64,000 nt of DNA, from NCBI GenBank assembly GCA_963818475.1, contig CAWFSF010000006.1, positions 800,001-864,000 on the forward strand, read 5' to 3'. The DNA comes from Nitrospirota bacterium (GTDB lineage: Bacteria > Nitrospirota > UBA9217). This document shows, piece by piece, positions 48,394 to 64,000 of this stretch. Under the pieces are notes generated by a model. That model had not been told where the DNA came from. It made no database searches and was given only the letters and a program-made list of their open reading frames with translations. Made by a program: the position numbers and the translations under genes. Every line of letters starts with the position of its first letter. The stretch's first letter is position 1.

Positions 48394-49007
48394 TGGCGTT
48401 CAGCAAACAGCAGCAAAAAATCGTTCTGAGCGTGCTGGTCGTGGTCCTTGTACTGGCGATCATCTACCGCTTCGTCACTGGCGAAAAGCCGAAGACCGCG
48501 CCGCTTACCTACCCGCGCGGGGCGGTCGCGACCGCGCCAGTCCGGCAGGGGCTCCCGTCCCCAGCGGCATCTTCGGACCCGCTCACTGTTTTTTTTGCAC
48601 GCCAACACGAGCCCTTTCCCGGTGTCGGTCGCGATTTGTTCAGGATGCAAAATCCCGCGCCCAAACCAACAAAGCCGGCACCGGCCGTTCCTGCTGCTCC
48701 GGTTCCGCCGCCCGTGCCGGAGAAGTCGCCGGAGGAGATCGCAGCAGAGTTTGCCAGGGCGGACCTTTCGAAGTTCCGCTTCCTGGGATACCTGACCGAC
48801 AGGGACCGGTCCCTGTTCCTGTCGAAGGACGGGGAAACGTTCATCGTGAAAAGCGGCGACCGGGTCCTCAAAAACTATACGATCAAGGATGCAGGCAAGG
48901 ATTACGTGATCCTGCTCGATACGGTCACGAATGTCGAGGTGCGTATCGAACTCTCGGGAAGCGGACCTGAACCGGCCGCGCCGCCCCAGCCGCAGAGATT
49001 CAGATGA
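48393..49007 (+). CDS. PilP/GspC-position protein
   Basis: TM, RDLF, Pro linker, FRFLGYL...LFLSKDGETFIVKSGD. Confidence 0.7.
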   Translation: MAFSKQQQKIVLSVLVVVLVLAIIYRFVTGEKPKTAPLTYPRGAVATAPVRQGLPSPAASSDPLTVFFARQHEPFPGVGRDLFRMQNPAPKPTKPAPAVPAAPVPPPVPEKSPEEIAAEFARADLSKFRFLGYLTDRDRSLFLSKDGETFIVKSGDRVLKNYTIKDAGKDYVILLDTVTNVEVRIELSGSGPEPAAPPQPQRFR

Positions 49008-51383
49008 GGAGATGGATGATGAAAAAGATCGTGCTATTGCTCATGGCCGGCGTCCTGCCGGCGCTCATCGCCGGCTGCGCCGGTTCCCGGGCGTACCAGC
49101 GGGGCGAGACCTATTCCCACCGCGGAGAATGGGACCTGGCGGTCAAGGAATACCGCGAGGCCAACAAGCAGGCGCCCCAGGATATTGAGTACCGCTCATC
49201 ACTGATGCGCGCGGAGGAAACGGCGGCCAACCAGCATTATCAAAAGGCCCGCTCATTCGTCAAGGAGCGCAAACTCGACCAGGCCATCGTGGAGCTGCAG
49301 CAGGCGCTGTTCCTGAATCCGTCGAACGCGGCGATCCAGGGCGCACTCAAGTCGGTGCTCGACATCAAGCAGGCCGAGGAGCATTACCGGGCGGCGCTGA
49401 CGTTTCAGGAGCTGTCAAGACTGAACGACGCCATCACGGAACTGGGCCAAGCCGTCGAACTTGATCCGGAGAACGCCAAATACCATGACGCCCTGGACAA
49501 ACTGCAGAAGAAGAAGACCGAGATCGAGCCTGATGACGCCCTGAACCTGGCATCGGACAAGCCGATCACGCTGAATTTCAAAAATACGAACATCAAGGAG
49601 GTCTTCGAGCTCTTGGCGAAGCTCTCCGGGATCAATATCATGTTCGACGAAGAGGTCAAGGCCCAGCCCATCACCGTCTTTGTCAAGGATGTTTCGTTCC
49701 AGTATGCGTTGAACCTGCTGCTCTCGACGAACAAGCTTTTCATGAAAAAGATCAGCGCCGACACGATCATCATTATCCCCAAGAACAAGTCCAAGTCCGA
49801 CCAGTACCAGGACCTGATGGTGAAGACCTATTACCTCAACTATGCGAAGTCCAAGGAGATCGTGAACCTCCTGCGGTCCATGCTCGATGTCAAAAAGGTG
49901 TACGTCAACGAGATCCTGAACTCCATCACGATCCGCGATACACCCGAGAAGATCAAGCTGGTTGAAAAAATGATCGCAGCCAACGATCTGAAGGAAGGCG
50001 AGGTCATTCTCGACGTCGAGATCCTCGAGATCTCGCGGAGTAACACCCTGAAGTACGGCTGGAATTTCAGTCCCGGGCTTTCGGTCTCCGGAACGATCCA
50101 GAAAACGGATCCGTCCACAGGCGCGGCCGTGACCGACACGGGGATCACCCTGGCGGATTTGCGGAGCTCGGAAAAAAACGGTCTTTTCCTGAGCCTGCCG
50201 GGCATCGTGGTGAATCTGATCAAGCAGGACTCCGATGCCCAGGTCCTGGCCAATCCCCGTGTTCGCGTGCTGAACAACAAGCCGGCCAAGTTCCATATCG
50301 GCGACAAGATACCGATACAAACGTCGGTTGTGCAGGCAGCGGTGGCAGGCCAGACGACCTCGAACTTCGAGTATAAGGACGTGGGCATCAAGCTGAACAT
50401 CGAGCCGACGATCCACCTCAACAGCACGGTGACGCTCAAACTGGGCCTCGAGATCAGCACGCTTGGCGATGCCCTCGACTTCGGCAACGGCCAGAAACAG
50501 TACAAGTTCGGTACGCGCAACACGGACACGATCATCAACCTTCGGGACGGCGAAACGGTGATCATCGGCGGGCTGATCAAGGACGAGGAGCGCCGGGGCA
50601 GCATCAAGATCCCGCTGCTCGGCGATATCCCGATCCTGGGCAAGCTCTTCTCGTCGTCCGATGACGGCACGATCAAGACCGACATCCTCATGTCCATTAC
50701 CCCCAACATCGTGCGGAGCATGGAGATCCCGGACAAGGAGATGCAGAATTTCTGGTCAGGGACGGAGGAGGCATTCGATATCAAGCCGCTCTTCGTGACC
50801 ACGGCAAGCAAGAGCACGCGCGCCCCTGAAAAGGCCGCTTGATAAGACGGCGGTCCTCGACGCCCTGGCAAAACGGGAGCCTGCGGGTGCGGTCGAAGCG
50901 CCCGGGACGGGGACGGCTGCCCCGATCGAACCGCCCGCGGGGCAAAAGCCGGCCCTGCCGCCGACGGCCGGATCGGTACTGGAAATGAAACCCGCCGACG
51001 TGAGCGTGGCCGTAGGACAGGACATGAGATTTGAGCTCTCGGTGGATAACGTGCGCGATCTTTACGGCGCTATTGTCACGCTCGGCTATGATCCGAAGAT
51101 CACGGAATTCAAGACCGCCAGCGAAGGGGCGCTGCTGAAAAAGGACGGCCAGCAGACCTCTTTCCTGTTCTCGAACAACGTCAAGGCGGGGACGGTGGAC
51201 ATCTATATGACGCGGATCGGCGATGTGGGCGGGATAAGCGGTGCGGGAAGCCTGGGCACGCTCGTATTCCAGAGCAAGGCCGGCGGTTCCGGAGAAATAA
51301 GCCTTCGGAGCGTCAAACTGACGAATTCCAGCCGGGAGCCGATCAAGGCGGAGCTCAAGGGAGCGAAGATCACCGTCAAGTAG
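49004..51383 (+). CDS. lipoprotein secretin (GspD/PilQ-like) with TPR N-terminus and cohesin-like C-terminus (frameshift near 50840)
   Basis: Lipobox IAGC, TPRs, LANPRVRV, YKDVGIKL, IPLLGDIPILGKLF; ORF 50985-51383 is cohesin-like and continues the frame-shifted linker. Confidence 0.85.
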
Positions 51384-51398
51384 CGGGTGTTCCTGATC

Positions 51399-51875
51399 AT
51401 GCAAAAAGGACTTACCCTCATAGAGCTGATGGTCGTGATCGCTATCCTCGGGATCCTCACCGCTGCGGCAATGCCCCTTTCGCGCATGACCGTGAAGCGG
51501 GTCCGGGAGATGGAACTGCGGAGCGACCTCAGGATCCTGCGCAATGCCATCGATGCGTTCAAGAAGGACTGCATCGAAAAAAAGATCGCTTCGGATTATT
51601 GCAAGGCTGAGCGGGACAACTATCCCGAGTCGCTGGAACTGCTGGTCGAACCGGTGAAGCTGGCAGGCGCCGTGGACAGAACAAAAAAATATCTGCGCAG
51701 GATACCGCGCGACCCCATGATGCCGCCTGAGCAGGACGGCAACGCGCACAACTGGGGGCTCCGTGCCTACGGCGATGAGCCTGACTCGACCCAATGGGGC
51801 GGCGACAATGTGTTCGACGTCTATTCCCGGAGCGAGGCGATCGCCCTGGACGGGACCAGGTACAATACGTGGTGA
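51399..51875 (+). CDS. type II secretion pseudopilin (GspG-like)
   Basis: KG|LTLIELMVV prepilin motif, YLRRIPRDPM, YNTW. Confidence 0.88.
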   Translation: MQKGLTLIELMVVIAILGILTAAAMPLSRMTVKRVREMELRSDLRILRNAIDAFKKDCIEKKIASDYCKAERDNYPESLELLVEPVKLAGAVDRTKKYLRRIPRDPMMPPEQDGNAHNWGLRAYGDEPDSTQWGGDNVFDVYSRSEAIALDGTRYNTW

Positions 51876-51904
51876 AGGCGGGACGGAGATAAACCGTAAA
51901 ATGT

Positions 51905-52018
51905 TTTGCCACGAAGACACGAAGACACGAAGACACAAAGTGCAGCCTTAATCTAATCATTAAAGCGATTTATTCATCAGTTTTGTTGTTCTTCGTGACT
52001 TCGAGCCTTCGTGGCAAA
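51905..52018. repeat. CACGAAGA octamer palindromic element
   Basis: tttgccacgaagacacgaagacacgaagacacaaag ... cttcgtgacttcgagccttcgtggcaaa. Confidence 0.85.
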
Positions 52019-52062
52019 TTTTGGTTCCGGATTGTCCGGTCAGGAACAAGCAAATGGATACT

Positions 52063-52467
52063 ATGAACAATAAAAAAAAGCTCCTCAAACAGGCAGGATT
52101 CACGCTGATCGAGCTTATGATCGTGCTGTCGATCATGGGGATTCTGATCACCATTGCCGAGCCCAGCTTCAAGCAGTCCATTATCAGGGCGAGGGAAGCG
52201 GTGCTGAAGGAGGACCTGTTCCAGATCCGTGACGCCATTGACCAGTATTATGCTGACAATAATAAATATCCCGAGCAACTTACCGACTTGATCAACCAGC
52301 AGGACCGTACTCGTAGCTATCTGCGCGAGATCCCCAAAGATCCGTTTACCAGGGCTGCGGACTGGATCACCGTATCACCGGAAGGCGGCGAAGAGGCCGG
52401 CGTCTTCGATGTTCACAGCGCCAGCCCGCTCATTGCGGTTGATGGCACCGCGTATAATACCTGGTAG
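52063..52467 (+). CDS. type II secretion pseudopilin (GspG-like)
   Basis: AG|FTLIELMIV, AIDQYYAD, YLREIPKDPFT, YNTW. Confidence 0.88.
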   Translation: MNNKKKLLKQAGFTLIELMIVLSIMGILITIAEPSFKQSIIRAREAVLKEDLFQIRDAIDQYYADNNKYPEQLTDLINQQDRTRSYLREIPKDPFTRAADWITVSPEGGEEAGVFDVHSASPLIAVDGTAYNTW

Positions 52468-52723
52468 GTTTCCCAGCCGTCCGTACCCGCTCCAGGTTCG
52501 TGCGGCAGCAGGGCGGCCAACTCGTGCAGAATTCTCACTGTTTGAAGCAGGGTTCTATTAACCTCCATTGCAACTCGATTTTTCTTTTCATTAATCCTAA
52601 AAATCCTGACATCGCCCACTCCGGCTTGACCCTCCGCCAAAAGCTCAAAGCGTGACCTCAGCATCCAAAATTACCAGCCGTCAGCTGATTCGCGTCACAA
52701 TCGTTTTTTTGAGCGTCATACAG

Positions 52724-52771
52724 CACCTGTCAATTCTGACAGGTGACAGGTGACACCTTCTCCTATATAAT
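52724..52771 (+). promoter_or_regulatory. palindromic activator site overlapping a sigma70 promoter (copy 1)
   Basis: CACCTGTCA-attc-TGACAGGTG (52724-52745); -35 GTGACA 52743-52748, 17 bp, -10 TATAAT 52766-52771. Confidence 0.8.
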
Positions 52772-53048
52772 TCACGTGCATTGCATCAGCGACATTCTTC
52801 TCTTGGCGCAGTCGATCGTCCGGCTGTGAAAAATATGAATTCGCATTTGCACCGCGACGCTCTTTGACATTCAGCCTAGCTGTCCAACCTGCGAGATTCT
52901 GTTTGCCCTATGCGGCAAATATGGTAAGATACTGCCGTCTGCTTCGTTGACCGATCAATTGCAGATATTGGCTGGTTTGTGCGTCGCCGGCATTCCCTCA
53001 GTGTGGACAAAGCGACCGGGGTAATAATTATCTTGTGGGAGAACTATC

Positions 53049-54923
53049 GTGACGAAAATCGTCAGCAGTTTCACTATTTTTCTTGCCCTGGCCTTCTCCA
53101 TAACCTTCCCCCCCATTACCCTGGCGCAGCCTGATGAAGACAAAAAGTTCCTTCTCATGTATTTTAAGGAAGAGGAGCTCGTCGTGGAGTCGCCGACGCG
53201 CGGCAAAAAACCCCTCACCCAGGTTGCGGAGAACATTACCGTCGTTACCGCGGATGACATCAAACTCATGAACGCCCACACGGTCGCGGACGTGCTGAAT
53301 GGCGTGACCGGTGTGCAGGTGTTCATGACCGGCGGGCCGGGCAGTTCTGCACTGGCATCCATCCAAGGCTCGGATAACAGGCATGTTGCCATATTCATGG
53401 ATGGAATTCCTATGAACAACCTTAGCGACAATGTCACGGAGATCGGTGCTCTACCGGTCCAGAATATAGAAAAGATAGAGATCATCAAGGGACCGGCGTC
53501 TTCTGCCTGGGGCTCCTCCCTCGGCGGTGTAGTGAATATTATTACGAAGTCGGGGAGTGATGATGGATCCCGCAGCACGGTCTCTGCGAGCTACGGCGGA
53601 AAAAGCATGGCTGATATTAGAATGGAAACCCTTGGCAAAGAGGAACGATTCGGTTACTACGTCACCGCAGGCAGGCTTCAAACCGACGGTTTCAGGTCTC
53701 ATAATGATTTTTCCGGGAACAATGTTTACACAAAACTGACGTATGGCTTATCGGATAAAACGACCATCGGTTTTACTGTTGGGTATGACAACCTTTCGAG
53801 GGGTATTGCAGAATATCCTGACCCTGCTTACGATCTGTTTATTAATAATAAAATAGAGACACTGAAATCGTCTTTGATGGTGAAATCTTTGTTGAGTGAC
53901 GACGTAGAAGCTCAGCTCTCATTTTGGAAGTTGAAACAGAATAATGACATTTATTATTATAAGTTGAGTTCCGGAGTAGAGCTTTCAAAATACTACTATA
54001 AAGATAGCGGTTACGGCTCGAGTGCGAAACTCTCCTGGAAACACGATTTACATAATATCGTTCTGGGTGTGGACTTAGATTCTAAAAAACTTGAGTCTAA
54101 TACTATAGCTGACAATGATGGTTTAAAAAAATGGGCTTATTATATCAACGATACTGTTGCGATCGATCGCTTGTCACTTACGCCTGGCATCCGTTATGAT
54201 AAAACAAGCACGAACGGCGATTTCACCAGCCCGAGCCTTGGCGTTACTTATAAAATAACCGACTCATCTTTGCTCCGGGCATATGTTGCGCGGGGCTTCA
54301 GCATTCCGCCGCTTGGTTATACTTATGGAGATAACGATTTTTATATATCAAATCCAGACTTAAAAATGGAAAGAGTTTGGTCCTATGAGCTAGGAGCTGA
54401 ATCTACAGCGTTGCAATATGTCTGGATGAAGCTGTCCCTATTTCGGCACGATATCAGCGGCGGCATAAGACCAGAACCCGTATCAACGACTTCATCTACA
54501 CGGGTCAATGATGGAAGAGAGAGAAGGCAGGGAATGGAAATAGAGATGAAGTCACTGCCTCTCTACCATACTTTAATGGTTGCTGCAGTAACATTTATAA
54601 ACGCGAAAGATCTGGATACGGGTGAAACTATCGTAAACGTTCCTCAGCGAACATATGATATAGGCCTCCAGTTTGAGAATAATTCATTCAAGGCGCTGCT
54701 CAAGGGACATTATATTTATTGGAACGCTGATCCTACGTATAACGGGAAATACGATTCGATAATCGTGGATCTTCATGTTGCGAAGAATCTTTATGCGCAG
54801 CAAGATCAAGCGCTCGAAGCTTATTTTGATATCCATAATATATTCAACGGATCTCAATATCTTGTGGATGTATATACAAACCCGGCACGGTGGTTTGAAG
54901 CCGGCGTACGCTATACGTTCTAA
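53049..54923 (+). CDS. TonB-dependent outer membrane receptor
   Basis: Signal peptide, plug IEKIEIIKGPASSAWGSSLGGVVNIITK, C-terminal GVRYTF. Confidence 0.93.
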   Translation: MTKIVSSFTIFLALAFSITFPPITLAQPDEDKKFLLMYFKEEELVVESPTRGKKPLTQVAENITVVTADDIKLMNAHTVADVLNGVTGVQVFMTGGPGSSALASIQGSDNRHVAIFMDGIPMNNLSDNVTEIGALPVQNIEKIEIIKGPASSAWGSSLGGVVNIITKSGSDDGSRSTVSASYGGKSMADIRMETLGKEERFGYYVTAGRLQTDGFRSHNDFSGNNVYTKLTYGLSDKTTIGFTVGYDNLSRGIAEYPDPAYDLFINNKIETLKSSLMVKSLLSDDVEAQLSFWKLKQNNDIYYYKLSSGVELSKYYYKDSGYGSSAKLSWKHDLHNIVLGVDLDSKKLESNTIADNDGLKKWAYYINDTVAIDRLSLTPGIRYDKTSTNGDFTSPSLGVTYKITDSSLLRAYVARGFSIPPLGYTYGDNDFYISNPDLKMERVWSYELGAESTALQYVWMKLSLFRHDISGGIRPEPVSTTSSTRVNDGRERRQGMEIEMKSLPLYHTLMVAAVTFINAKDLDTGETIVNVPQRTYDIGLQFENNSFKALLKGHYIYWNADPTYNGKYDSIIVDLHVAKNLYAQQDQALEAYFDIHNIFNGSQYLVDVYTNPARWFEAGVRYTF

Positions 54924-54975
54924 TAACTTGAGCACTATTCGCTTTAAATTAAAAAAGGGGGGGAGGTGAGTGGGG

Positions 54976-55071
54976 ATGAAAAATCGTATTATCGTTTTAA
55001 AAAAAGGAGTTGATAAAAAAGGCGTTGTTTCCGGCGGCTGTTGTGCCATGGCTTTTATTCCGATCCGTTAG
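54976..55071 (+). CDS. 31-aa RiPP precursor peptide MKNRIIVLKKGVDKKGVVSGGCCAMAFIPIR
   Basis: Strong GGAGGTG RBS, directly upstream of an rSAM/SPASM gene, CC motif after GG; below the ORF-track cutoff. Confidence 0.8.
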   Translation: MKNRIIVLKKGVDKKGVVSGGCCAMAFIPIR

Positions 55072-55088
55072 TTAACGTACGTTTTAGA

Positions 55089-55121
55089 GAGGGAGGGCTG
55101 CTGGCTCTCCCTCGCATTTTA
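55089..55121 (+). terminator. stem-loop between precursor and maturase
   Basis: GAGGGAGGGC-tgctg-GCTCTCCCTC then gcattttatt. Confidence 0.6.
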
Positions 55122-55168
55122 TTCTTATAAAAGCGACAGATTTTGATCTACCTCATGATGAAAAGACC

Positions 55169-56455
55169 ATGCCATTATCAAAATATACTAAAATATACCC
55201 CTCCCCAGATGGACCTGATTCCGTAATTCTTTATTCTACGAAAAATGCATCGGCACTGCTCGTCCCTTCCGGATCGATTGAAGACATCCAGAAAAACAGC
55301 TTGTCCGACGAGGAAAAAGAAACCCTCACGGATCACGGTTGCCTGGTAAAGGATGCCTCGGAAGAAAGACGTGAGATGCTCACCTTTATCCGGGAAGTGA
55401 ATTCTCTCGATAAAACGCTGAACTATATTGTTGTCTTGAACCTGGACTGCAATCTCGCATGCACATACTGTTTCGAGGGCGAAAGAAAGGGCAAGCTCTA
55501 CCTGTCCGATGAAACAGCCGACCAGTTCGTAGATTTCGTGAAGCGCAGCAGTGTCGGAAAAGAAGAGATCAATATCACCTTTTACGGCGGCGAGCCGCTC
55601 TTAAGCATGGAGCGCATTGCAGGGATCTCTGAAAAACTTCGTTTGTTCTCGGAACAGAAGGGACTTGCTTACGGCTTCTCGCTCGTTACCAACGGGACCC
55701 TGCTCACACCCAGGAATGTAAAGCGCTTAACGCCTCTCGGCTTGAAAAGCGCGAAAGTAACGCTCGATGGGCCGGAATATGTCCATGACATGTTCAGGCC
55801 ATTCAAATCCGGCGAAGGGTCCTTCAATATCATCATGCGGAATATCAAAGACGTCTGCGACATGATACGCATCCAGATCGGGGGTAATTATACGCAGGAA
55901 CATTTTCAGAAGTTTCCCCGGCTTCTTGACGTTCTCGCGGAAAAAGGCCTAACTCCCGACAAGATATATATGGTCAAATTCGACCCCGTGGTCAATGAAA
56001 GCGCAGAGTTTGCGCCGCGTGATTTTCATGACGGGTGCGCGTCGATCAATGAACCCTGGATCAGCGAAGCGAGCCTGTTCCTGCGGGAAGAGATATTGAA
56101 GCGGGGATACAAAACGCCGAAGATCATGCCGTCTCCCTGCGCCATTGAGCGGGAAAGCAGCCTGGTGGTCAACTACGACGGTGCACTGTACAAATGCCCG
56201 GGGCTGATCGGCAGGGCTGACTGCTGCGTGGGCGATCTCAAGAGCGGCTTGATCGACTACGGCAGCTCTCATGATCTCGACGCCTGGAAAAACGAGGAAT
56301 GCCTTGCCTGCGAATATCTCCCGCTCTGTTTCGGCGGATGCAAGTACATGAAGCTGCTGCGCGACGGCACCCTGCGCGGCATCAATTGTCAAAAAGAGTA
56401 TCTTGACCGGACCCTCGCCGGACTGGTGGCACAGGATATTAAATACGATCTATGA
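55169..56455 (+). CDS. radical SAM/SPASM peptide maturase (geopeptide-maturase-like)
   Basis: CNLACTYC, FYGGEPLL, TNGTLL, SPASM C...DGALYKC...CLACEYLPLCFGGC...C; N-terminal extension could be an RRE. Confidence 0.9.
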   Translation: MPLSKYTKIYPSPDGPDSVILYSTKNASALLVPSGSIEDIQKNSLSDEEKETLTDHGCLVKDASEERREMLTFIREVNSLDKTLNYIVVLNLDCNLACTYCFEGERKGKLYLSDETADQFVDFVKRSSVGKEEINITFYGGEPLLSMERIAGISEKLRLFSEQKGLAYGFSLVTNGTLLTPRNVKRLTPLGLKSAKVTLDGPEYVHDMFRPFKSGEGSFNIIMRNIKDVCDMIRIQIGGNYTQEHFQKFPRLLDVLAEKGLTPDKIYMVKFDPVVNESAEFAPRDFHDGCASINEPWISEASLFLREEILKRGYKTPKIMPSPCAIERESSLVVNYDGALYKCPGLIGRADCCVGDLKSGLIDYGSSHDLDAWKNEECLACEYLPLCFGGCKYMKLLRDGTLRGINCQKEYLDRTLAGLVAQDIKYDL

Positions 56456-56464
56456 CCCGTTTCA

Positions 56465-56496
56465 ATATCTGTGAAATCTGCGTAATCTGCGGATAA
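56465..56496. repeat. solo arm of an AATCTGCG nonamer repeat element
   Basis: atatctgtgaaatctgcgtaatctgcggataa. Confidence 0.55.
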
Positions 56497-56572
56497 TACA
56501 TTGACTTGAGCAGTTACTAAAAAAATCTTTTCACTAATCAGCAGGCTTTCGGATAGATAACACAGGCATTCC

Positions 56573-57485
56573 TTGATCAAATTGAATTCATACTTCGCCC
56601 GCAACCTTCTCCTCATCTTTTCCCTGTTCGCAGCGGTTCCGGTGCTCGGACCCGCGTCCGTGAACGCATGCGATGTTGTCGTAGTGAAAAGCGCCGACCT
56701 GAAACCCTACCGCGACGCGCTTCGAGGGTTTCGGGACGCGAGTTCCTGCACCGTGAGCGAAGTGGAATTGAACGACGATCGCGATCTTGAAAGAATACGT
56801 CAGAAAACGGCCCGATGTCGTGCTGGCGATCGGTACAACGGCCTTTAAGAAGCTCAGGCTGTTGAACGATGTTCCCGTTGTGTACGTTATGGCTGTCCTC
56901 TCCGAGGCGGACCGCGCACTTCCTCCGAATATTTCCGGCGTGAGCATGGAGATACCGCCTGCGGCCTATTTTGCCGCCATGAAACAGGTCTTTCCCTCGG
57001 CAAAACAGGTCGGTCTTTTGTACGATCCGCGCAACAGCGAGACCTTTGTCGAAGAAGCGTCACGCGACGCACGCGCCGCCGGTCTCGAGCTGTCGGACAG
57101 GAAGCTCCCCGATCCCGCAGGCCTGGCTGCTGCTCTCGGCAGCATGCGGGACACTATCGACATCCTGTGGATCTTGCCAGATCCGACCGTGGTAACGCCT
57201 GAAACGATCGATTACCTGCTGCGTTTTTCCATTCAAAACAATATTCCGCTCTTCGCTTTTTCAAAAAAATACGTCGAAATGGGCGCGATCGCTTCGCTCG
57301 ATGTTGACCCCTACGACATGGGCGCGCAGGCCGCGGACATAGCAAAGGGGATCGCCGCGGGGGGCAAAGGGTCGGTACGCGTATACGCGCGGAAAACCCG
57401 GCTTTCGATCAACGGGAAGGCCGCGAACAAAATGGGCGTCAAGATCGACAGCGAAACGGCGCGCAGGGTGGACCATGCCGATTAG
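56573..57485 (+). CDS. periplasmic ABC-type substrate-binding-like protein without permease (frameshift near 56800)
   Basis: Signal peptide, PDVVLAIG, VGLLYDP, LWILPD, YVEMGA, DMGAQAA, LSIN. Confidence 0.85.
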
Positions 57486-58927
57486 GAGCTTTCGGAACAG
57501 GATCCGGGAACAATTCGGACTGAAGGTGTTCACCGCCTTCTTCGTCGTCATTGTTGTGCTCCTGACAACCTATACCGGCATCGGCGCTTTCCGTGAATGG
57601 CACAAGGCGAAGGACAAATTGAAGGAACAGGGGGAGATGCTTGCAGACCTGCTCTCACAGAATGTCCTCGTCGGGCTGTTCGCGGAGGACGAAACACTGC
57701 TCGAGGCGGCTGCGGCCGGAATGCTCGGTCTGAAAGACGTCACGTCGATCACGATCTATAACAGCGAGCTGAAGTTGCTCTATGCCGGTAAGCGGTCTTC
57801 GTCCGGGCAAAGCGCAACGCCCCTCCCTGGCGGACCGGTCCCCGGTCTTGGGGGTGTTTCCGGTCCCGACGTCGTCGAAACAGCGGACTCCTTTCAGTTC
57901 ACAAAACCCGTGTCGATCAGGTCGCGGTCCCGAGGCTGTCGAGTCCCTGTATTTCGACGTGCAGGGCACGGGGCGCAGCGGCCGGGTGATAGGATACGCG
58001 CAAGTCGTCCTGAGCAAGGACTCATTTCGCAAGGACATCGCATCGCTCGTGACGCGGAGAGCCGTAATGATGCTCCTGTTCATCGCTGCCGGCTGGGTCA
58101 TCATTTCTTTCGCAGTGAAGCAGGTCACGCGGCCGCTCCGGAACCTGACCGGGAAGGTGCGGTCGCTTGAATTGGGACTGCCCATCGAACCGGCTGTTGT
58201 GGAAACGGAGGATGAGATCGGGAAGCTCGCAGCGGCCTTCAACGCGATGGTTGAGGCGCGCGTCAGAGCGGAAAAATCCATGCGGGAGAGCGAGGAACGG
58301 GAACGGCACCTGATAGCGACCGACCTTCATGATTTCGTGGGACAGAACCTCGTGGCGTCGCAATACCAGCTCGGAGCATTGCGGAAGCTCATCTCCTCCC
58401 CTGAAGCGGCCGCACGCCTGGACGAGGCGCGCGAGCTGATCGCGCAGACCATCCAGTACACGCGGTCGCTCACCATCGAGCTCAGGTCTCCCGTGCTGGA
58501 GGAACTCGGCTTGCAATCGGCCATCGAATCGCTGGCCGAAAGTTATGAAACCACCCACGGGGTCCCTGTGCGGGTGGAGAATGACGGCTTGCCGATGGAG
58601 ATCAGCGACGAGACGGGCTATCTGCTCTTCCGGAGCGTGCGCGAGCTCCTGATGAACATCGTAAAGCACGCGAAGGCGACCGAAGCGAGGATCTCGGTGA
58701 CGAGGACGGGGGACAATGTCCGCATCGCGGTCAGGGACAACGGCATCGGGTTCATTGCAACGGCGGCGCCACAGCCCGGCCATAGCTTTGGTTTATTCAC
58801 CATCCGCGAGAGGCTACGAGGCCTTGGCGGGCATTGCGACGTCGAATCCGCGCCCGGCGCGGGGACAACGGTGGTCCTTACGGCGCCGCTCGTGAGATCC
58901 GGGGAACAGGGAAAGAGGACGCCATGA
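57475..58927 (+). CDS. membrane sensor histidine kinase, HAMP + HisKA_3 (frameshift near 57925)
   Basis: 2 TM, DEIGKLAAAFN, ERERHLIATDLHDFVGQNL, ELLMNIVKHA, DNGIGF, FGLFTIRER. Confidence 0.9.
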
Positions 58928-59568
58928 TAAAGATACTTCTCGTTGACGACCACAAGATCGTGCGCGCCGGGCTCAGGGCGGTGATAGCCGGGCACCCGGA
59001 CATGACCGTTGTTGCCGAAGCGGGCGACGGCAGGACCGCCGTGGAACTCGCCGCCGAAGTGTCGCCGAACGTTATTATCATGGACATCTCCATGCCCGGT
59101 TTGAACGGAACGGAAGCGACCCGCAGGATACTGGAGGCGAACCCGGACGCCAGGATCATAGCGCTGTCGATGCATCTTGAACGGCGCATCGTGCTCCAGA
59201 TGCTGGGCGCCGGCGCAAAAGGATATTTATTGAAAGACGGCGCCGATGACGAGGTGATCGACGCCATTCTCGCTGTTACGCAGAATGCGACCTACCTGAG
59301 TCCGAGGATCAGCAACATGGTCTTGAGGGACTACGTCGAACGGGTCTCGAAAAATGAACTGTCCTCGATCTCCCTTCTGTCGTCGCGGGAGCGGGAAGTT
59401 CTGCAGCTTCTGGCCGAGGGGAAAAAGACAAAGGATATCGCCACGCTCCTTACGGTAAGCATAAAAACCGCAGAATTCTACCGCCAGCAGATCATGGAAA
59501 AACTGGACGTTCATACCATCGCCGAGCTTACGAAGCTGGCTATCCGCGAAGGCCTGACCTCGCTGTAA
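58924..59568 (+). CDS. NarL/LuxR family response regulator
   Basis: LLVDDH, MDISMP, GYLLK, LSSREREVLQLLAEGKKTKDIA HTH. Confidence 0.95.
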   Translation: MIKILLVDDHKIVRAGLRAVIAGHPDMTVVAEAGDGRTAVELAAEVSPNVIIMDISMPGLNGTEATRRILEANPDARIIALSMHLERRIVLQMLGAGAKGYLLKDGADDEVIDAILAVTQNATYLSPRISNMVLRDYVERVSKNELSSISLLSSREREVLQLLAEGKKTKDIATLLTVSIKTAEFYRQQIMEKLDVHTIAELTKLAIREGLTSL

Positions 59569-59682
59569 CATTTCCGCAGTATTCAAACTTCCTGATAGCC
59601 CTATCTGCCATACCTGCTTGTATGAAATCAGGCCCCTGCACGTCATAACCGGCTCAAAACCCAAAAAAGGACTCTCAAAAGG

Positions 59683-59730
59683 CACCTGTCAGTTCTGACA
59701 GGTGACAGCGAACAAAAAATCACTTACAAT
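59683..59730 (+). promoter_or_regulatory. palindromic activator site overlapping a sigma70 promoter (copy 2)
   Basis: CACCTGTCA-gttc-TGACAGGTG (59683-59704); -35 GTGACA 59702-59707, 17 bp, -10 TACAAT 59725-59730. Confidence 0.8.
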
Positions 59731-59856
59731 CCCGCAACTACTGGTTGATGCAGTTCTGGTCTTATGCAGGTTCCGTTTCAACCATGATTCTTATCAACCC
59801 ACGCTGTTTTGTGCGATTACCTGCGACAATGTGCGTAAAAAAAGGAGGATACTATT

Positions 59857-60864
59857 ATGGACATCGAATTTCACTATTACATCACCGCTCTTATAGCACT
59901 TCGCGCCGGATTTACTAAGGAAGAGGCCTATATACTTGCCTATGCTTCGCAGCATGTTGACGATAATACCGACGTCTTTAAGATCAATCAGGGTACCGCC
60001 GAGGCATACAGCAATTACATAAGTCAAACGTCAAACATACTAAAAGCGGAAAAGGAGCTAATGCAAATCTATCCCGTTTTCCACTTTATGCCGGGGAACA
60101 GGGACGAGATTGAATGTGAAGGGGCCATGCGATGTGACGGAAAACTTCATGTTCTCAATACGATACCGGACAATAGCAATGCCTGCGCCGTCCTGCAGGC
60201 GGCTTTCGACGACGGCAATCTCTACCGCATAGGGATAGCAACGCATATGTACGCAGATACGTTCGCGCATCAGAACTTTGTCGGCTACTACGAATCGTTC
60301 AATGCCATGAAAGGCGTTCTCGGTAAAGCTATTCCCGATGTGGGGCATGCGGACGCCCAACACAACCCCGATCTGCCGGGGCTCATCTGGGATGATAAAC
60401 GCCTTATCAACAAGAACAAGGATGTCTGCAACAGGGACCGTTTCCTCAAAGCGGCAGAACGCATCTTTGAGCAGTACCGGCGACATAAAGATCCCCACTG
60501 CTCGCCTGAAGTCATTACAGCGGACAAGACCTCGCTTATGGCCACTATTACTTATGCGATCGGTGAAACCGGCGATCATGCGGTCAACGATCAGGAGCGA
60601 AAGAATCGCATAGCCCGGTATAGAAAAGCCATTGGTGAAGATTTTAAGGACTATGACGAAAAGGAGTGGCTTGGCGAGGCAATTGAACGAAAAGGCCTCC
60701 TTGCCCCGATCAATCCGTGGCCCTCGTATGCATGGAAAGCCGATCACACGGACAGCCACTGGTTCAAGTTCCAGGAAGCGGTCAAGAACCATCAATGGTT
60801 CGCCAAGGACAATGTCCTGAGCCCCATCACCAAAAATCTTCAGCTTGATCGATTTTATAATTGA
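59857..60864 (+). CDS. His-rich putative metallohydrolase (DUF6765-like; phospholipase C/P1 nuclease-like)
   Basis: AAGGAGG RBS; FHYY, SQHVDDN, FHFMPG, GIATHMYADTFAHQNF, GHADA. Confidence 0.7.
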   Translation: MDIEFHYYITALIALRAGFTKEEAYILAYASQHVDDNTDVFKINQGTAEAYSNYISQTSNILKAEKELMQIYPVFHFMPGNRDEIECEGAMRCDGKLHVLNTIPDNSNACAVLQAAFDDGNLYRIGIATHMYADTFAHQNFVGYYESFNAMKGVLGKAIPDVGHADAQHNPDLPGLIWDDKRLINKNKDVCNRDRFLKAAERIFEQYRRHKDPHCSPEVITADKTSLMATITYAIGETGDHAVNDQERKNRIARYRKAIGEDFKDYDEKEWLGEAIERKGLLAPINPWPSYAWKADHTDSHWFKFQEAVKNHQWFAKDNVLSPITKNLQLDRFYN

Positions 60865-60896
60865 GGACTACCTTACGGATGGAGTGTTCCCTTTCC

Positions 60897-61460
60897 ATGA
60901 TACATGAATACGAGATCAACGGTGTGACCCTGCGGACCGGGGATATCATCTGCACGCATGACGGGGGCGCCCCGATTCTGGAGGGCCAGCTCTGGCATTT
61001 TGTCGGGAACCTGATCCCCGGCGATGTCGACCATGTCGCTCTTTATCTTGGACCGGGCGGTCGCTGCATAGAGGCAGGGCCGAAAGGGGTCAACATATTC
61101 GAAATGAAGAGCAGGACCTGGGATTCCGTGAATATGCGGGACCAGCGCGGCCCGGTTGTGGATACGTTCTACGGCGTCGCCTGCCCGGTAGAGGGCAGAG
61201 GTCTTGCGGAAGAAAAAAAAGCCGAGATCCGGGAGAGCGTTGCCCGGTACTGCATTGCGCAGGCAGGAAAGCCGTACAATTTGAATTTTATGAATTCGGA
61301 AACAGAAGATACGTTTTATTGCAGTCAATTAGCGTGTCTGGCGTATCTGAAAAGCGGCATCATTTTGAACACGGACCTGGGGGTGCCTCTGGTTCCCGGG
61401 ACGCACAGCATCATCTTTCCGCAGGAGATATGGAGCGGGTGTGTAAATAAAAAGGCATGA
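60897..61460 (+). CDS. permuted papain-like NlpC/P60 enzyme (YiiX/YebB-like)
   Basis: GDII, HVALY, IEAG, GKPY, FYCSQL with His preceding Cys. Confidence 0.82.
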   Translation: MIHEYEINGVTLRTGDIICTHDGGAPILEGQLWHFVGNLIPGDVDHVALYLGPGGRCIEAGPKGVNIFEMKSRTWDSVNMRDQRGPVVDTFYGVACPVEGRGLAEEKKAEIRESVARYCIAQAGKPYNLNFMNSETEDTFYCSQLACLAYLKSGIILNTDLGVPLVPGTHSIIFPQEIWSGCVNKKA

Positions 61461-61593
61461 GTGTCCCTGTCAAGGGGACCGGAAACAGTTCGATCACCGT
61501 TTCCAGAGCTCATCTGCAGGGTGATAAAAGAAGTTTTTAGGCCAAGATGGCAGATTTGACCGGCATTAGAATAACCTGAAGGAGAACGAGATC

Positions 61594-61950
61594 GTGAAGG
61601 CGAAAAAAAACAATGGCACGGGTGAGAATATCTGCGCTTGTGGAAGCTGGTTGGACCACTGGAAGAAATACGGCAGTCAGGCACTTCCCAGGTACTGCAC
61701 AGAAGCGAAATGTATGCACGCGCCGGAAGTCGGAGCGCATATCCAAAAGGACGGCTCTTCAGACAACGGCTGGTACATTGTTCCGCTCTGCAGTGCCCAC
61801 AATGCCGAAAAGGGCAGATCGCTGAACGTCAGTGATGCTGTACAGCTTGTGCCGGCCGATATCAGTATCACGTGCGGCAAGAAGGATGCTGAAGAGCGCA
61901 ACAACGTTGGCATGACCGAATGGGGCCAATTTACAGGAACGCATAGGTAG
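61594..61950 (+). CDS. small Cys/His protein with HNH-like signature
   Basis: AAGGAG RBS; CACGSWLDHW, CTEAKC, GAH, PLCSAHN. Confidence 0.7.
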   Translation: MKAKKNNGTGENICACGSWLDHWKKYGSQALPRYCTEAKCMHAPEVGAHIQKDGSSDNGWYIVPLCSAHNAEKGRSLNVSDAVQLVPADISITCGKKDAEERNNVGMTEWGQFTGTHR

Positions 61951-61992
61951 AAACAACTTTCCTCAAAAGCGCCGAAAGGGAAAGCGGAGACC

Positions 61993-62115
61993 GTGAAACA
62001 AAATTGCTGGGATTTTAAAAAACGCGGAAGTCTACCGGGTGGAGCGCACGCGGAGGATCTGGGCGTATGTCCGGTTGCGACGTACGCCGCGGTTAGAACA
62101 GTGGGGTCAGATTAA
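61993..62115 (+). pseudogene. truncated two-CW-type Cys domain remnant
   Basis: MKQNCWDFKKRGSLPGGAHAEDLGVCPVAT...* (40 aa) with GGAG RBS. Confidence 0.5.
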
Positions 62116-62125
62116 GGGGGGGCTT

Positions 62126-62584
62126 ATGCAAGGAGCTATAGGGGATGTCGATTTTTTAACGCTTTTGCAATATGGGGCAACAGGCTTTGCCGTCATTTTA
62201 TTATCTCTTGGATATCGGCTCCTGAACCAGCTGATGAACGCCAAGGACAAGGGCGATAACTTTAAACGAAAATTATTCGCCGTTGTTTTTTTCATGTCGA
62301 TCTCAACGATATTTTTTTTCGGGGGACTGGCCGGACAGTATATTTTACAACAACAGGAAAGGCCGGTGAATGTCCTGATAACACCTAACCAAATGCCGGC
62401 AGGTGTGGACCGACCGCAAATACGGCGGGGAGTCGAATCAATTAAGCTGGAGAATGGGGCCGCAGTTGTGGCCGTAAAATACAATGATACCCTGAACTTT
62501 CAAGTCGAATGCCTGACGGATAGAATATTAATGTGTCAACAGGCGCAGCGGTACGCTCCAACAATGAACCAAACATTGCAATGA
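62126..62584 (+). CDS. hypothetical membrane protein
   Basis: Two TM helices followed by a soluble domain. Confidence 0.6.
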   Translation: MQGAIGDVDFLTLLQYGATGFAVILLSLGYRLLNQLMNAKDKGDNFKRKLFAVVFFMSISTIFFFGGLAGQYILQQQERPVNVLITPNQMPAGVDRPQIRRGVESIKLENGAAVVAVKYNDTLNFQVECLTDRILMCQQAQRYAPTMNQTLQ

Positions 62585-62593
62585 GGTGATGCT

Positions 62594-63205
62594 ATGAACA
62601 ATAAATTATGTTATCCGACATGCACCTTGGTTTTGGCTGTCCTGTTATTAGTGTCGCAGAGCGTCGCTCAAGATCGATTTCAATCCGATATTCCGGATGC
62701 AGTGTCAGCGCAACTGGAAGAAGCGAAATTGCTGCGCCAAAAAGGCCAGATCAATCCGGCCATAGAAAAACTGAACGCGATCATTGCGAGTTGTCCCGAT
62801 TATTATATGGCTTACTATAATTTAGCGTTGGCATATAGCACTGCCAGGGATTATCAAAAGGCGGTCGCCGCATTCAACAAAGCATTGGATATCCGGGACC
62901 GCAAGAAGGTCCCCGAAGCGACCATTTTCAACACTATGGGAGTAATGTATATGTACGCGGGCGATTACCCGAATGCCGAATTAATGCTGAAAAAGGCGGA
63001 GCAAAATGTGGATTTGCTTCCGGGAAAATCAAGAGGAAAATTATTTAACAACCTGGGAGTATATTATTTCAACGCTGGAAAATATCCTGAATCGGAAAAA
63101 TATTTTCGAATCGCATCGACTCGATATGCCAGTAAGTCTGCAAAAGACAACATAAAGATATTGGAAAAGATCAAGAGTGATGTTGCAGATATGAAGAAGA
63201 AATAA
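62594..63205 (+). CDS. secreted TPR protein
   Basis: GAGGTG RBS, signal peptide SVA|Q, AYYNLALAY and FNNLGVYY TPRs. Confidence 0.8.
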   Translation: MNNKLCYPTCTLVLAVLLLVSQSVAQDRFQSDIPDAVSAQLEEAKLLRQKGQINPAIEKLNAIIASCPDYYMAYYNLALAYSTARDYQKAVAAFNKALDIRDRKKVPEATIFNTMGVMYMYAGDYPNAELMLKKAEQNVDLLPGKSRGKLFNNLGVYYFNAGKYPESEKYFRIASTRYASKSAKDNIKILEKIKSDVADMKKK

Positions 63206-63327
63206 ACGGGATCATCGCAGGACTTAGGCAAGAAATAAGCAAACACGTGCTTGACCGCTCGAATCCGTTCCCCATAATAGGCGCGATTCGGGGGGCGACG
63301 CAATGGGTGCAACAAGGAGAGATTTTC

Positions 63328-64000
63328 ATGGAACCGGAAGCAGCGCGCAAAAAACACACCATACTTGTCGTGGATGATGACCACGATGTGCTTAGATCAC
63401 TTCGATTAGTGCTGACCACCTGTGAATACAAGGTCATCACGGCCTCCAATGCCGCAGCGGCGCTTGACATACTGCATAATCCGATGGCGGGCGTGGACGT
63501 CGTCCTCACGGACATCAGGATGCCCGGAATGGATGGTCTCGAATTGGCAGTTAAAATTCATCAACTTGACCGGGAGATCCCTGTTCTGGTCATGTCCGCC
63601 TACGCCGAGCTGACCGATGCCATCGACGCGATCCATCGAGGGGCCTTTGATTTCATCATCAAACCGCTCAATCCCGAGTATCTCATCCATTCCATCCGAA
63701 AGGCGGAGACCCTCCTCGACATGAGGACCCTGGAACGGAACTACAAGCAGGCGCTCCAGGAGGACGTCACCATAAAGACCAGGGAACTGCAGGACCTGAA
63801 CAGGGAGATCATCCACCGCCTGACCGTGGTCGCGGAATACCGGGACACGGACACGGGTCTGCACAACTCGCGGGTCGGGAGCTTCGCGGGAACGATCGCG
63901 GAAACGCTCGGGATGTCCGCTGAATTTGTCGAAACAATAACGCTTGCGAGCTCGCTTCATGATATCGGCAAGGTCGGGATCATGGACAGCATCCTTCTGA
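63328..64000 (+). CDS. response regulator with HD-GYP domain (RpfG-like), truncated by window end
   Basis: AAGGAG RBS; ILVVDDD, TDIRMPGMDG, AEYRDTDTGLH, LHDIGKVGI. Confidence 0.9.
   Translation, partial: MEPEAARKKHTILVVDDDHDVLRSLRLVLTTCEYKVITASNAAAALDILHNPMAGVDVVLTDIRMPGMDGLELAVKIHQLDREIPVLVMSAYAELTDAIDAIHRGAFDFIIKPLNPEYLIHSIRKAETLLDMRTLERNYKQALQEDVTIKTRELQDLNREIIHRLTVVAEYRDTDTGLHNSRVGSFAGTIAETLGMSAEFVETITLASSLHDIGKVGIMDSILL

Follow-up and report, generated by a model that had tools for sequence, protein, structure and literature searches.

Two box promoters at the locus

The window, by which we mean the whole 64,000-nucleotide stretch analysed, contains genes for a TonB-dependent receptor, a radical SAM protein, a periplasmic binding protein, a sensor histidine kinase and a response regulator, followed by DUF6765 and Peptidase_C92 genes (Table 1). 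Two stretches, 52723-52749 and 59682-59708, agree at 26 of 27 positions, as the first-pass annotation had reported. Both contain a perfect 22-bp (9-4-9) palindrome, CACCTGTCA-N4-TGACAGGTG, and the repeat family covering the two sites extends to 34 nt at 88%. Scanning the window with up to three mismatches returned two palindrome matches against 0.03 expected (100 shuffles, none of which reached two). A hand count against the quoted Vibrio fischeri lux-box string reproduced the annotation's figures of 14/20 and 15/20.

The promoter geometry described in that annotation also holds. GTGACA starts with the last three bases of either palindrome, and exactly 17 bp separate it from TATAAT (52766-52771) at the first site and from TACAAT (59725-59730) at the second. 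Assuming a start about 7 nt past the -10 element, both dyads center near -43.5, close to the -43 originally claimed. An independent consensus scan of 52300-61600 on the + strand ranked the two as the top promoter-like sites. The right arm of box 1 continues into two more 7-bp repeats (TGACAGG TGACAGG TGACACC), and the spacer of promoter 2, ACAGCGAACAAAAAATCA, is common to many other copies in the genome.

Table 1. Features of the locus and of the distant luxR* operon (window positions, except where a contig of genome G000 is named)
Feature	Position	Strand	Remarks
Left part of 56.6-kb segment (G000:C6:852470-909101)	52470..64000		missing at the same place in a same-genus genome
Lux-type box 1	52724..52745		perfect palindrome CACCTGTCA-ATTC-TGACAGGTG
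Sigma-70-like core promoter 1	52743..52771	+	GTGACA, 17 bp, TATAAT; 11/12 consensus; predicted start near 52778
TonB-dependent receptor gene	53049..54923	+	Plug and beta-barrel; ~270 nt downstream of promoter 1
Terminator-like hairpin	55089..55113	+	11 pairs, 7 G-C, T-rich tail; between receptor and radical SAM genes
Radical SAM protein gene	55169..56455	+	paralogue, 64% identity, at G000:C6:246703-247989
PF04392 (ABC_sub_bind) periplasmic binding protein gene	56651..57485	+	apparent frameshift near 56787-56809 relative to paralogue
Sensor histidine kinase gene	57475..58927	+	HAMP, HisKA_3, HATPase_c
NarL/VraR-type response regulator gene	58924..59568	+	REC and single GerE helix-turn-helix
Lux-type box 2	59683..59704		perfect palindrome CACCTGTCA-GTTC-TGACAGGTG
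Sigma-70-like core promoter 2	59702..59730	+	GTGACA, 17 bp, TACAAT; 10/12 consensus; predicted start near 59737
DUF6765 gene	59857-60864	+	downstream of promoter 2
Peptidase_C92 gene	60861-61460	+	downstream of promoter 2, after DUF6765 gene
luxR* (168-aa LuxR homologue)	G000:C6:886445-886951		outside the window, ~27 kb downstream
luxR* operon: REC, 401-aa protein, PAS histidine kinase, luxR*	box at C6:883020		box is one of the 28

A set of 28 box promoters in one genome

The genome scan that the first-pass annotation proposed defines a promoter set. With up to two mismatches, G000 (assembly completeness 91%) contains 28 copies of the 22-mer, 20 of them perfect, seven with one mismatch and one with two; a control scan with the reversed pattern gave no matches. 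The copies are spread over four contigs upstream of unrelated genes, each oriented toward its downstream gene with the same promoter geometry. GTGAC[AG] directly follows the palindrome at every one of the 28 sites, 27 have a 17-bp spacer, and a -10 element matching TATAAT in at least five of six positions is present in 23 of 28, compared with 0.9% of 20,000 random genome positions. The palindrome arms are invariant and the 4-bp center varies. Conservation begins at the palindrome and stops about 60 nt further on; many copies agree in the spacer and in the initial ~20 transcribed bases. Each of the remaining 63 family genomes has at most one box. The window palindromes are two members of this set, in which putative LuxR-type operators are fused to near-consensus sigma-70 core promoters.

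A 56.6-kb island contains both window sites together with several mobile elements, an operon for a short LuxR homologue (LuxR*, see below) and, in all, six of the 28 box promoters. The first-pass annotation had considered an alternative in which the two sites were att-like repeats bounding a 7-kb insert, with a single copy left at an empty site. This is ruled out by the 28 copies, the 56.6-kb extent of the real insertion and the empty site of the same-genus genome, which contains no box copy.

The box serves luxI in other genomes

G006 and G019, from two other genera, each have a single copy of the box, placed immediately before a PF00765 LuxI gene that is accompanied by a convergent LuxR gene (PF03472+PF00196). 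Metagenome loci L118/L119, L120 and L121 likewise have the box upstream of luxI with a full-length LuxR adjoining, and related LuxI/LuxR loci carry the sister boxes CACCTGGCG-N4-CGCCAGGTG, CACCTACCC-N4-GGGTAGGTG and ACCTGTCC-N4-GGACAGGT. Judged by its position just upstream of luxI and beside a full-length LuxR in these organisms, the 22-mer is a genuine lux box, and the earlier description of lux-type boxes in class II activator-like geometry stands. A domain search of G000 detected neither PF03472, the acyl-homoserine-lactone (AHL)-binding domain, nor PF00765, and LuxI was not found in any of the six genus genomes searched (G000-G005).

A short LuxR homologue is the probable binder

Among the eight GerE proteins of G000, the nearest to the box-associated LuxRs is LuxR*. 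Compared with a quorum-sensing LuxR, this protein retains the helix-turn-helix, the first two helices and the linker helix, and lacks the AHL-binding core. In tblastn comparisons with the box-associated LuxRs it scored 115-120 bits; the second-best match, a REC-GerE-GerE regulator of a paralogous operon (C6:250932-251765), scored 77, and the window regulator 42-51. The corresponding C-terminal identities, over 71-72 aligned residues, were 57-64%, 46-51% and 31-37%. The LuxR* recognition helix, ITERTVYYHSQNI, is nearly identical to that of the box-associated LuxRs (SERTVHFH[AG]QNI; window regulator, VSIKTAEFYRQQI), and the solved structures closest to its profile are CviR, RhlR, SdiA and LasR.

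Twelve LuxR*-type proteins from metagenomes, 166-210 aa long with PF00196 as their only domain, conserve the N-terminal 40 residues and the helix-turn-helix around a variable middle; LuxR* is, by this comparison, a conserved family and not a decayed gene. In the AlphaFold model of LuxR*, the helix-turn-helix (residues 111-160) has a block-mean pLDDT of 90-95 and residues 42-70 are disordered; the pTM of the model is 0.40. An independent contig (L113), whose LuxR* protein is 75% identical, shows the same succession of box, REC and luxR*, and at L117 a 59% identical homologue has a box 34 bp past its stop codon. Autoregulation of LuxR* is apparently conserved, its own operon starting at a box in two organisms.

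On this evidence LuxR*, and not the neighboring NarL-type response regulator, is probably the binder of both boxes (probability about 0.6), and it would act without autoinducer and be autoregulated. Lux boxes are dyad-symmetric and bound by LuxR dimers, according to PMC10134790, and LuxR* would bind as a dimer too; against this, it retains little of the domain through which full-length LuxRs dimerise, and the middle of its model is disordered. Since LuxR* lacks an AHL-binding core and G000 yielded no LuxI, its action should be independent of autoinducer, and output would then be set by the amount of LuxR* made. The box at the start of its operon would feed back on that amount, and the co-transcribed phosphorelay genes (REC and PAS histidine kinase) are the likely input.

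Across the genus, box and LuxR* do not co-occur as neatly as this proposal would have it, which counts against it. G004, a 74%-complete assembly, encodes a LuxR* orthologue with an identical recognition helix and has no box at up to two mismatches; loci of the 209-aa type (L114, L115, L055) have none within up to 10 kb of flank. Conversely, G001, G003 and G005 (65%, 71% and 92% complete) have one box each, and LuxR* was not found in them with the query used.

Sign of regulation and other candidate binders

Class II-type activation by LuxR* seems somewhat favored over repression. Near-consensus core promoters may fire without an activator; repression, or no regulation, is conceivable. As a repressor, LuxR* or another protein would occupy boxes that overlap the -35 of strong constitutive promoters, and genes for accessory, defence and secreted proteins would stay silent until titration or inactivation of the regulator released them. 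A good -35 is usually absent from LuxR-activated promoters; here the -35 matches at five of six positions, the spacer is 17 bp and most -10 elements are good. Single boxes also persist in the relatives without a detected LuxR*. PMC4444344 describes a position-dependent lux box, activating upstream of the promoter and repressing between -35 and -10. The boxes described here lie upstream of the -35 and overlap it by 3 bp, which is the activating position and not the core position of that account, and the same box serves luxI, a classical activated target, in G006, G019, L120 and L121. We regard the repressor explanation as unlikely.

Another LuxR-type protein might occupy the boxes, either an AHL-responsive LuxR of full length, accompanied by LuxI or alone, which could lie in the 9% of G000 left unassembled, or the REC-GerE-GerE regulator. 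The latter has a LuxR-like second helix-turn-helix, and a protein of its type is the only LuxR-like helix-turn-helix found in the same-genus genome G005, which has one box. Yet its own operon bears a different box, ACCTACCC-GAAC-GGGTAGTA (CCTACCC-type), which matches that second helix-turn-helix, and its helix, ISQDTVKFHMKN, matches LuxRs found in G021 and G026 rather than those of the CTGTCA group. Regulators of this type also occur in G010, G024 and G027 (in G027 beside the radical SAM operon) without a CTGTCA-type box. Together with the absence of LuxI from the six genus genomes and the box at the luxR* operon in two organisms, this makes another LuxR-type binder distinctly unlikely.

The first-pass annotation had assigned both boxes to the response regulator encoded between them, which, when phosphorylated by its kinase, would autoregulate its own operon and activate the DUF6765/C92 operon. 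It does combine REC with a GerE helix-turn-helix, and at some positions of the recognition helix (T, F, Q, I, M, K, L) it agrees with the LuxRs, so cross-binding may occur. Moreover, a lux-type box occupies the equivalent distal position upstream of the receptor gene in paralogous operons of G000, G003 and G027, which makes box-dependent control of the operon family plausible. That box is, however, of the other type in G000 and, among five relatives examined, in G003 and G027, fitting a second helix-turn-helix that the window regulator lacks. Its single helix-turn-helix is NarL/VraR-like (best solved matches VraR, NarL, ChrA and DevR), and the TW[DE]IS and HxQN signatures seen in the box-associated LuxRs are missing from it. 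The regulator's nearest homologues (61% identity in G016, 58% in G036 and G017; helix KTVETYRQQIMEKL, nearly the same recognition helix) belong to genomes with no boxes, and genome-wide it adjoins only two of the 28. The terminator-like hairpin separates the receptor gene from the rest of the operon, and apparent frameshifts affect both the binding-protein gene and the cognate kinase gene (between 57795 and 57875, with ~150 residues of the paralogue missing). The assignment, and with it the pairing of autoregulation with one target operon, is not supported, and we judge it very improbable.

Least plausible of all is that the 22-mer belongs to a repeat of selfish or structural nature, such as a MITE, REP element or recombination site, that carries a promoter by chance: the genome is rich in MITEs with multi-copy matches, the conserved spacer and early transcribed bases suggest module copying, and 27-28 copies contrast with at most one per relative, but the ±70-nt flanks showed neither terminal inverted repeats nor target duplications, every copy is directed at a downstream gene, the same 22-mer is a single-copy luxI operator in other genera, and invariant arms around a variable center are expected of a dimer-binding site.

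Comparison with known systems

The boxes share with the V. fischeri lux box a 20-22-bp dyad, a CTG-N10-CAG core and ACCTGT/ACAGGT arms. As at the V. fischeri luxI promoter, they sit just upstream of the -35 and overlap it, the dyad lying near -43, and in relatives of G000 they precede luxI next to luxR. Unlike V. fischeri, G000 is an uncultured Nitrospirota, not a proteobacterium, has no detected LuxI or AHL-binding domain, and carries 28 copies rather than a handful, with good -35 hexamers.

The window regulator resembles two-component regulators of the NarL/VraR/DevR type (REC and GerE), which typically bind their own heptamer or dyad sites; adjacency alone ties it to the lux box. EsaR/ExpR-type LuxR repressors bind DNA without AHL and are released by it. 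LuxR* may resemble them as a LuxR-family protein active on DNA without signal; they differ in keeping the AHL-binding domain, in their release by AHL and in operators that overlap the core promoter.

An engineered C-terminal fragment of LuxR, made by N-terminal deletion, was reportedly an autoinducer-independent activator (Choi and Greenberg, 1991). LuxR* would be comparable as a DNA-binding domain freed of its ligand-binding domain, with signal-independent action expected. Unlike that fragment it is natural and conserved; the linker helix and ~40 N-terminal residues are still present, and its gene belongs to an operon with REC and histidine-kinase genes. Ligand-independent LuxR solos act by expression level according to PMC10134790, where MalR, CarR and CepR2 are placed in class E; like them, LuxR* has no partner synthase, and its output would follow expression level. 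These solos keep a complete PF03472 with six key residues, whereas LuxR* lacks the core of that domain and, at 168 aa against 230-270 for the solos, represents a conserved short clade.

Two lux-type boxes from a genome-wide set of promoters

The first-pass annotation described two near-identical palindromes, each fused to GTGACA-17-TATAAT or GTGACA-17-TACAAT, and this observation is real. The 27-bp stretches at window 52723-52749 and 59682-59708 differ at a single position (26/27 identity), and each holds a perfect dyad of about 20 bp with a CTG-N10-CAG core (box 1 and box 2; table). These are the only matches in the window at up to three mismatches, against 0.03 expected from shuffled sequence. 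At both sites GTGACA begins with the final GTG of the palindrome, and 17 bp further on lies TATAAT (box 1) or TACAAT (box 2). A generic promoter scan placed the two at the top of the promoter-like sites on the + strand of this region, with scores of 11/12 and 10/12. With the start set 7 nt after the -10 hexamer, the dyads are centered about 43.5 bp upstream of the predicted starts, near window 52778 and 59737. Sequencing runs listed for window 52500-61500 comprised two of DNA type, with small shares, and none of RNA. Likeness to the lux box had also been proposed, correctly: by hand count, 14/20 and 15/20 positions agree with the lux-box string used there, and an identical box precedes luxI in relatives.

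The right arm of box 1 is followed by two extra 7-bp repeats, leading to a second GTGACA. This extension is absent at the equivalent place in the other 27 copies described below; the copy at 2012088 of the window's contig CAWFSF010000006.1 (C6) has TGACAGG TGACAGG TAACGCG.

Positions of boxes, genes and repeats on contig C6
Feature	Window	C6	Remark
Type II secretion/pilus-like cluster, left of the island	48393-52467		TPR-repeat secretin, cohesin-domain protein, two N-methyl pseudopilins
Cohesin-domain gene to second pseudopilin	50919-52470		82-91% conserved in same-genus genomes
Inverted repeat of CACGAAGA tandem units	51905-52018		present as dozens of incomplete copies in other genomes of the genus
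Island		852470-909101	left edge at window 52470, right behind pseudopilin gene
Box 1	52724-52745	852724	perfect 9-4-9 palindrome CACCTGTCA-N4-TGACAGGTG; starts 254 bp past island edge
Repeats extending box 1	52738-52758		TGACAGG TGACAGG TGACACC
Terminator-like hairpin	55089-55113
Short AATCTGCG-type tandem motif	56467-56522		right behind radical SAM gene; multi-copy in same-genus genomes
Apparent frameshift, PF04392 binding-protein gene	56787-56809
Apparent frameshift, histidine kinase gene	57795-57875
Window regulator	58924-59568		REC+GerE
Box 2	59683-59704	859683	perfect 9-4-9 palindrome CACCTGTCA-N4-TGACAGGTG
Further island boxes		867286, 874064, 876113
Island box of the LuxR* operon		883020
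LuxR*		886445-886951	168-aa ORF
Paralogous-type box		244208	ACCTACCC-GAAC-GGGTAGTA
Paralogous operon		244.5-251.8 kb
Receptor gene of paralogous operon, split		244491-246477
Paralogue regulator		250932-251765	REC-GerE-GerE
Tandem GGTACCCGTATGGGTAG repeats		256375-256420	between divergent genes, 4.6 kb beyond paralogue regulator

A picture of two sites, one at the regulator's own promoter and one at a target promoter, did not outlast a scan of the source genome (7 contigs, 4.66 Mb, 91% complete). We found 28 copies of the box before unrelated genes on four contigs: 20 perfect, seven with one mismatch and one with two. A reversed-pattern control gave no matches. When the copies are oriented, GTGAC[AG] stands in identical register in all 28 and the 17-bp spacer is kept in 27; at least five of six -10 positions match in 23/28, compared with 0.9% of random positions. 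The predicted -10 hexamers of 27/28 copies fit a dyad centered about 42-44 bp upstream of the start, over the -35 element. T predominates in the 4-bp center when read along the promoter strand (CTTC, GTTC, GTTT and similar), and many copies share the spacer ACAGCGAACAAAAAATCA, which is present at box 2 and absent at box 1. About 14 of the 28 promoters also carry a leader motif, AAATTGTCGAG(GGC), at a fixed offset of roughly +3 to +12 past the predicted start (for example at C6:737655, 867286 and 2221377; absent at box 1 and box 2). It matched no Rfam family and may act as an additional operator or as a signal in the RNA.

The genes downstream of the boxes are mutually unrelated. They encode HNH endonucleases, a Ser/Thr kinase, a DUF2806/Abi-like protein, a SIR2-like protein, an RNase T-like exonuclease, a trypsin-nuclease fusion, a 1130-aa transglutaminase-like protein, NHL and Ig-repeat giants, phospholipase A1, DsrE, XRE-type regulators and a stand-alone REC protein. 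A further copy is found about 1.5 kb away from the gene for tmRNA. Rfam searches gave no matches within the window and, in 18 loci of other copies, only tmRNA, tRNAs and group II introns, none listed at a box. A search of viral contigs for the box followed by GAC returned one match, in an unrelated high-GC prophage-like sequence, and among the literature matches listed for the motif strings there were only primer or eukaryotic contexts.

The box precedes luxI in relatives

Five of 60 relatives carry the box, each as a single copy; family-wide (64 genomes, at most one mismatch), the source genome has 27 copies and every other genome at most one. Two genomes from other genera of the family (G006 and G019) have their lone copy immediately before a gene for a LuxI-type synthase (PF00765), beside which lies a convergent gene for a full-length LuxR (PF03472+PF00196). 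The best 11 of 74 metagenome loci include four (L118 and L119 from the G019 species, plus L120 and L121) with an identical box 17-100 bp upstream of luxI. Other LuxI/LuxR loci, of the phylum and of proteobacterial MAGs (16 of 45 loci scanned in a second set), have sister palindromes in the equivalent place: CACCTGGCG-N4-CGCCAGGTG, CACCTACCC-N4-GGGTAGGTG, ACCTGTCC-N4-GGACAGGT and TACCTGTCA-N4-TGACAGGTT. Because the identical box stands upstream of luxI beside luxR in relatives, the motif is, by sequence and context, strictly speaking a lux box. The G006 and G019 luxI boxes (L022 488-509 and L023 6086-6107) also have a good GTGACG-17-TATAGT promoter directed away from luxI, and may therefore serve both directions.

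LuxI itself (PF00765) was detected in 8 of 61 searched genomes, with no match in the source genome or in five other genomes of its genus. The source genome likewise gave no match to the autoinducer-binding domain (PF03472).

A short LuxR homologue is the candidate binder

Among the eight GerE-domain proteins of the source genome, the one that best matches the LuxRs of G006 and G019 has 168 aa. We call it LuxR*; it is encoded about 27 kb downstream, on the island that also holds the two window boxes. Its helix-turn-helix scores 71.8 bits against PF00196, the only domain in its precomputed Pfam annotation. Alignment indicates that LuxR* retains the two N-terminal helices, the pre-linker helix and the entire helix-turn-helix, and that the segment with the ligand-pocket residues is deleted; six key pocket residues of LuxRs are listed in a section of PMC10134790. 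An AlphaFold model gives block-mean pLDDT values of 90-95 for the helix-turn-helix, with residues 42-70 disordered.

Twelve metagenome proteins of 166-210 aa, all with PF00196 alone, form the same short family, with strong conservation at both ends and a variable middle; five are exactly 168 aa long and 75-80% identical. A 114-aa fragment (P0012) and a protein with no Pfam domain (P0015) were left out of these alignments. The short form is thus, from its sequence conservation, a conserved family rather than a product of decay. When the family profile was compared with solved structures, CviR, RhlR, SdiA and LasR ranked before any two-component regulator.

LuxRs paired with CTGTCA-type boxes (G006, G019, LuxR* and its orthologue in same-genus G004) share the recognition helix TV[HY][FY]H[AGS]QNI. 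LuxRs of other boxes differ at this place, for instance with HIAN where the box is CTGTAC/GGACAG, or IKR or MKN where it is CTACCC, a correlation drawn from few, related sequences.

The operon of luxR* opens with a box. In order, its genes encode a REC protein (C6:883124-883492, 122 aa), a secreted protein of 401 aa that matches no Pfam family, a PAS histidine kinase (C6:884889-886121) and LuxR*. An independent contig, L113, whose LuxR* homologue is 75% identical, has the box with GTGACA-17-TATAAT, a REC gene (66% identical) and luxR*; box-driven luxR* operons, as predicted from sequence, are thus present in two organisms. On L117 a 59% identical homologue has a box 34 bp past its stop codon. 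A 209-aa subtype (L114, L115, L055 and G004) is preceded by a PAS kinase, and the flanking sequence available for it contains no box.

The adjacent response regulator and a paralogous system

From box 1 rightward, the window encodes a TonB-dependent receptor, the terminator-like hairpin, a radical SAM protein, a PF04392 binding protein, a HAMP/HisKA_3 histidine kinase and a REC+GerE response regulator (the window regulator), then box 2, DUF6765 and Peptidase_C92. The first-pass annotation had this regulator binding both boxes, thereby controlling its own operon and one target operon. It does have an adjacent histidine kinase, as a two-component arrangement of this kind would lead one to expect, albeit one whose gene has an apparent frameshift. 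The closest solved structures are VraR, NarL, ChrA and DevR, and over the C-terminal 71-72 aligned residues the window regulator is 31-37% identical to the box-associated LuxRs, compared with 57-64% for LuxR*. Its nearest homologues, in G016 (61%, adjoining that genome's radical SAM operon) and in G036 and G017 (58%), have an almost identical recognition helix, and their genomes contain no boxes. Binding by this NarL/VraR-like protein is not supported by these data, nor by the different box of the paralogous system; autoregulation with a single target fares no better, given 28 copies on four contigs and a box that is not kept with homologous systems.

That paralogous operon and matching operons in G003 and G027 (L187, L189) carry, in the equivalent distal position, a different lux-type box, ACCTACCC-GAAC-GGGTAGTA, followed after 20 nt by TATAAT (read by eye) and resembling the luxI box of G021. 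By eye, none of this type was found within 420 bp in G023, G016 or G010. The regulator of the paralogous and matching operons is an unusual fusion of REC, a degenerate GerE and a LuxR-like GerE domain (277-281 aa), whose LuxR-like second helix-turn-helix fits the box; the window regulator does not have it. With their own lux-type box and this second helix-turn-helix, the paralogous operons may therefore be where the autoregulation model applies, as judged from sequence, and the window operon appears to have been taken over by a CTGTCA-type box. The GGTACCCGTATGGGTAG repeats beyond the paralogue regulator may be sites for it.

Relative to the paralogous operon, the PF04392 and kinase genes of the window have one frame change each, with short homopolymer runs at both places, and the kinase is missing about 150 residues. 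The receptor gene of the paralogous operon is also split, as, seemingly, is the one that follows the box at C6:1641666. These breaks may be assembly indels rather than marks of pseudogenes.

Box 1 and box 2 lie in a larger island

The boxes had alternatively been read as att-like repeats bounding a 7-kb insert, in which case an empty site would hold one repeat. Both lie in one 56.6-kb insertion relative to the same-genus genome G005, and the G005 junction, 8 bp wide, contains no copy of the box; with 28 copies genome-wide, we reject this reading. The island holds six boxes, the LuxR* operon, two IS110-type genes, an ISL3 gene, a Y1 transposase gene, a group II intron, PIN and TIR genes, and Kelch and FG-GAP giants.

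CTGT-N8-ACAG also fits an E. coli-type LexA/SOS box, a reading we dropped because the box associates with luxI and luxR. A MITE or REP element is rejected on account of a conserved block that runs only from the palindrome to about +25 and of the orientation of every copy toward a gene; by eye, the ±70-nt flanks show no target-site duplications. An intrinsic terminator at the box is dismissed, since on the coding strand the palindromic hairpin has no T-run behind it.

Discussion

The motif, its copies and their geometry, its association with luxI and luxR elsewhere, and the homology and conservation of LuxR* are firm. The most likely reading is that this Nitrospirota genome has a predicted 28-promoter lux-box regulon under a LuxR lacking the ligand domain. 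LuxR* would bind the box as a dimer and, by analogy with an engineered C-terminal fragment of LuxR and with ligand-independent LuxR solos, would act without autoinducer. Such solos are described in part of PMC10134790. Since the box is upstream of the -35 element and not between -35 and -10, LuxR* would more probably activate than repress these promoters; a section of PMC4444344 contrasts the two positions and links the upstream one to activation. Against this reading, the core promoters are near consensus, LuxR* occurs without a box in G004 (a 74%-complete assembly), boxes occur singly without a found LuxR* in G001, G003 and G005 (like G004, incomplete assemblies), and the source genome is incomplete. 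More generally, when a gene for a LuxR-type helix-turn-helix adjoins a lux-like box, that closeness is a poor guide to which protein binds there.

We also consider a broader scenario, which we think rather unlikely: a Nitrospirota LuxR lineage dropped acyl-homoserine-lactone sensing and was re-wired to a phosphorelay, and a box-promoter cassette was copied before about 28 mostly accessory genes. Input would run through the single-domain REC protein and PAS histidine kinase of the same box-driven operon. Targets would include defense genes (SIR2, the TIR/PIN neighborhood, HNH, Abi-like, nuclease-protease), large secreted proteins and an outer-membrane receptor, and newly acquired islands would be plugged into one switch.

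To our knowledge, almost no genetic tools exist for Nitrospirota. If LuxR* drives these promoters, the pair would offer a compact, well-defined promoter-regulator system for the phylum. It would also show, in nature, the conversion of a quorum-sensing regulator into a master switch of accessory and defense genes that either needs no signal or is fed by a phosphorelay.

For Proteobacteria, lux boxes and LuxR solos are textbook knowledge. AHL-type LuxRs are called exclusive to that phylum in a passage of the review PMC10134790. The present case stands apart by lux-type operator logic in uncultured Nitrospirota, a conserved Nitrospirota LuxR clade without the ligand-binding core, and an operator-promoter module multiplied 27-fold in one genome, compared with at most one copy in the other sampled genomes of the family. 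Unlike a quorum-sensing LuxR receptor (PF03472+PF00196), LuxR* is without an N-terminal autoinducer-binding domain and has no partner LuxI that we could find; what it shares with such receptors is the GerE/LuxR helix-turn-helix.
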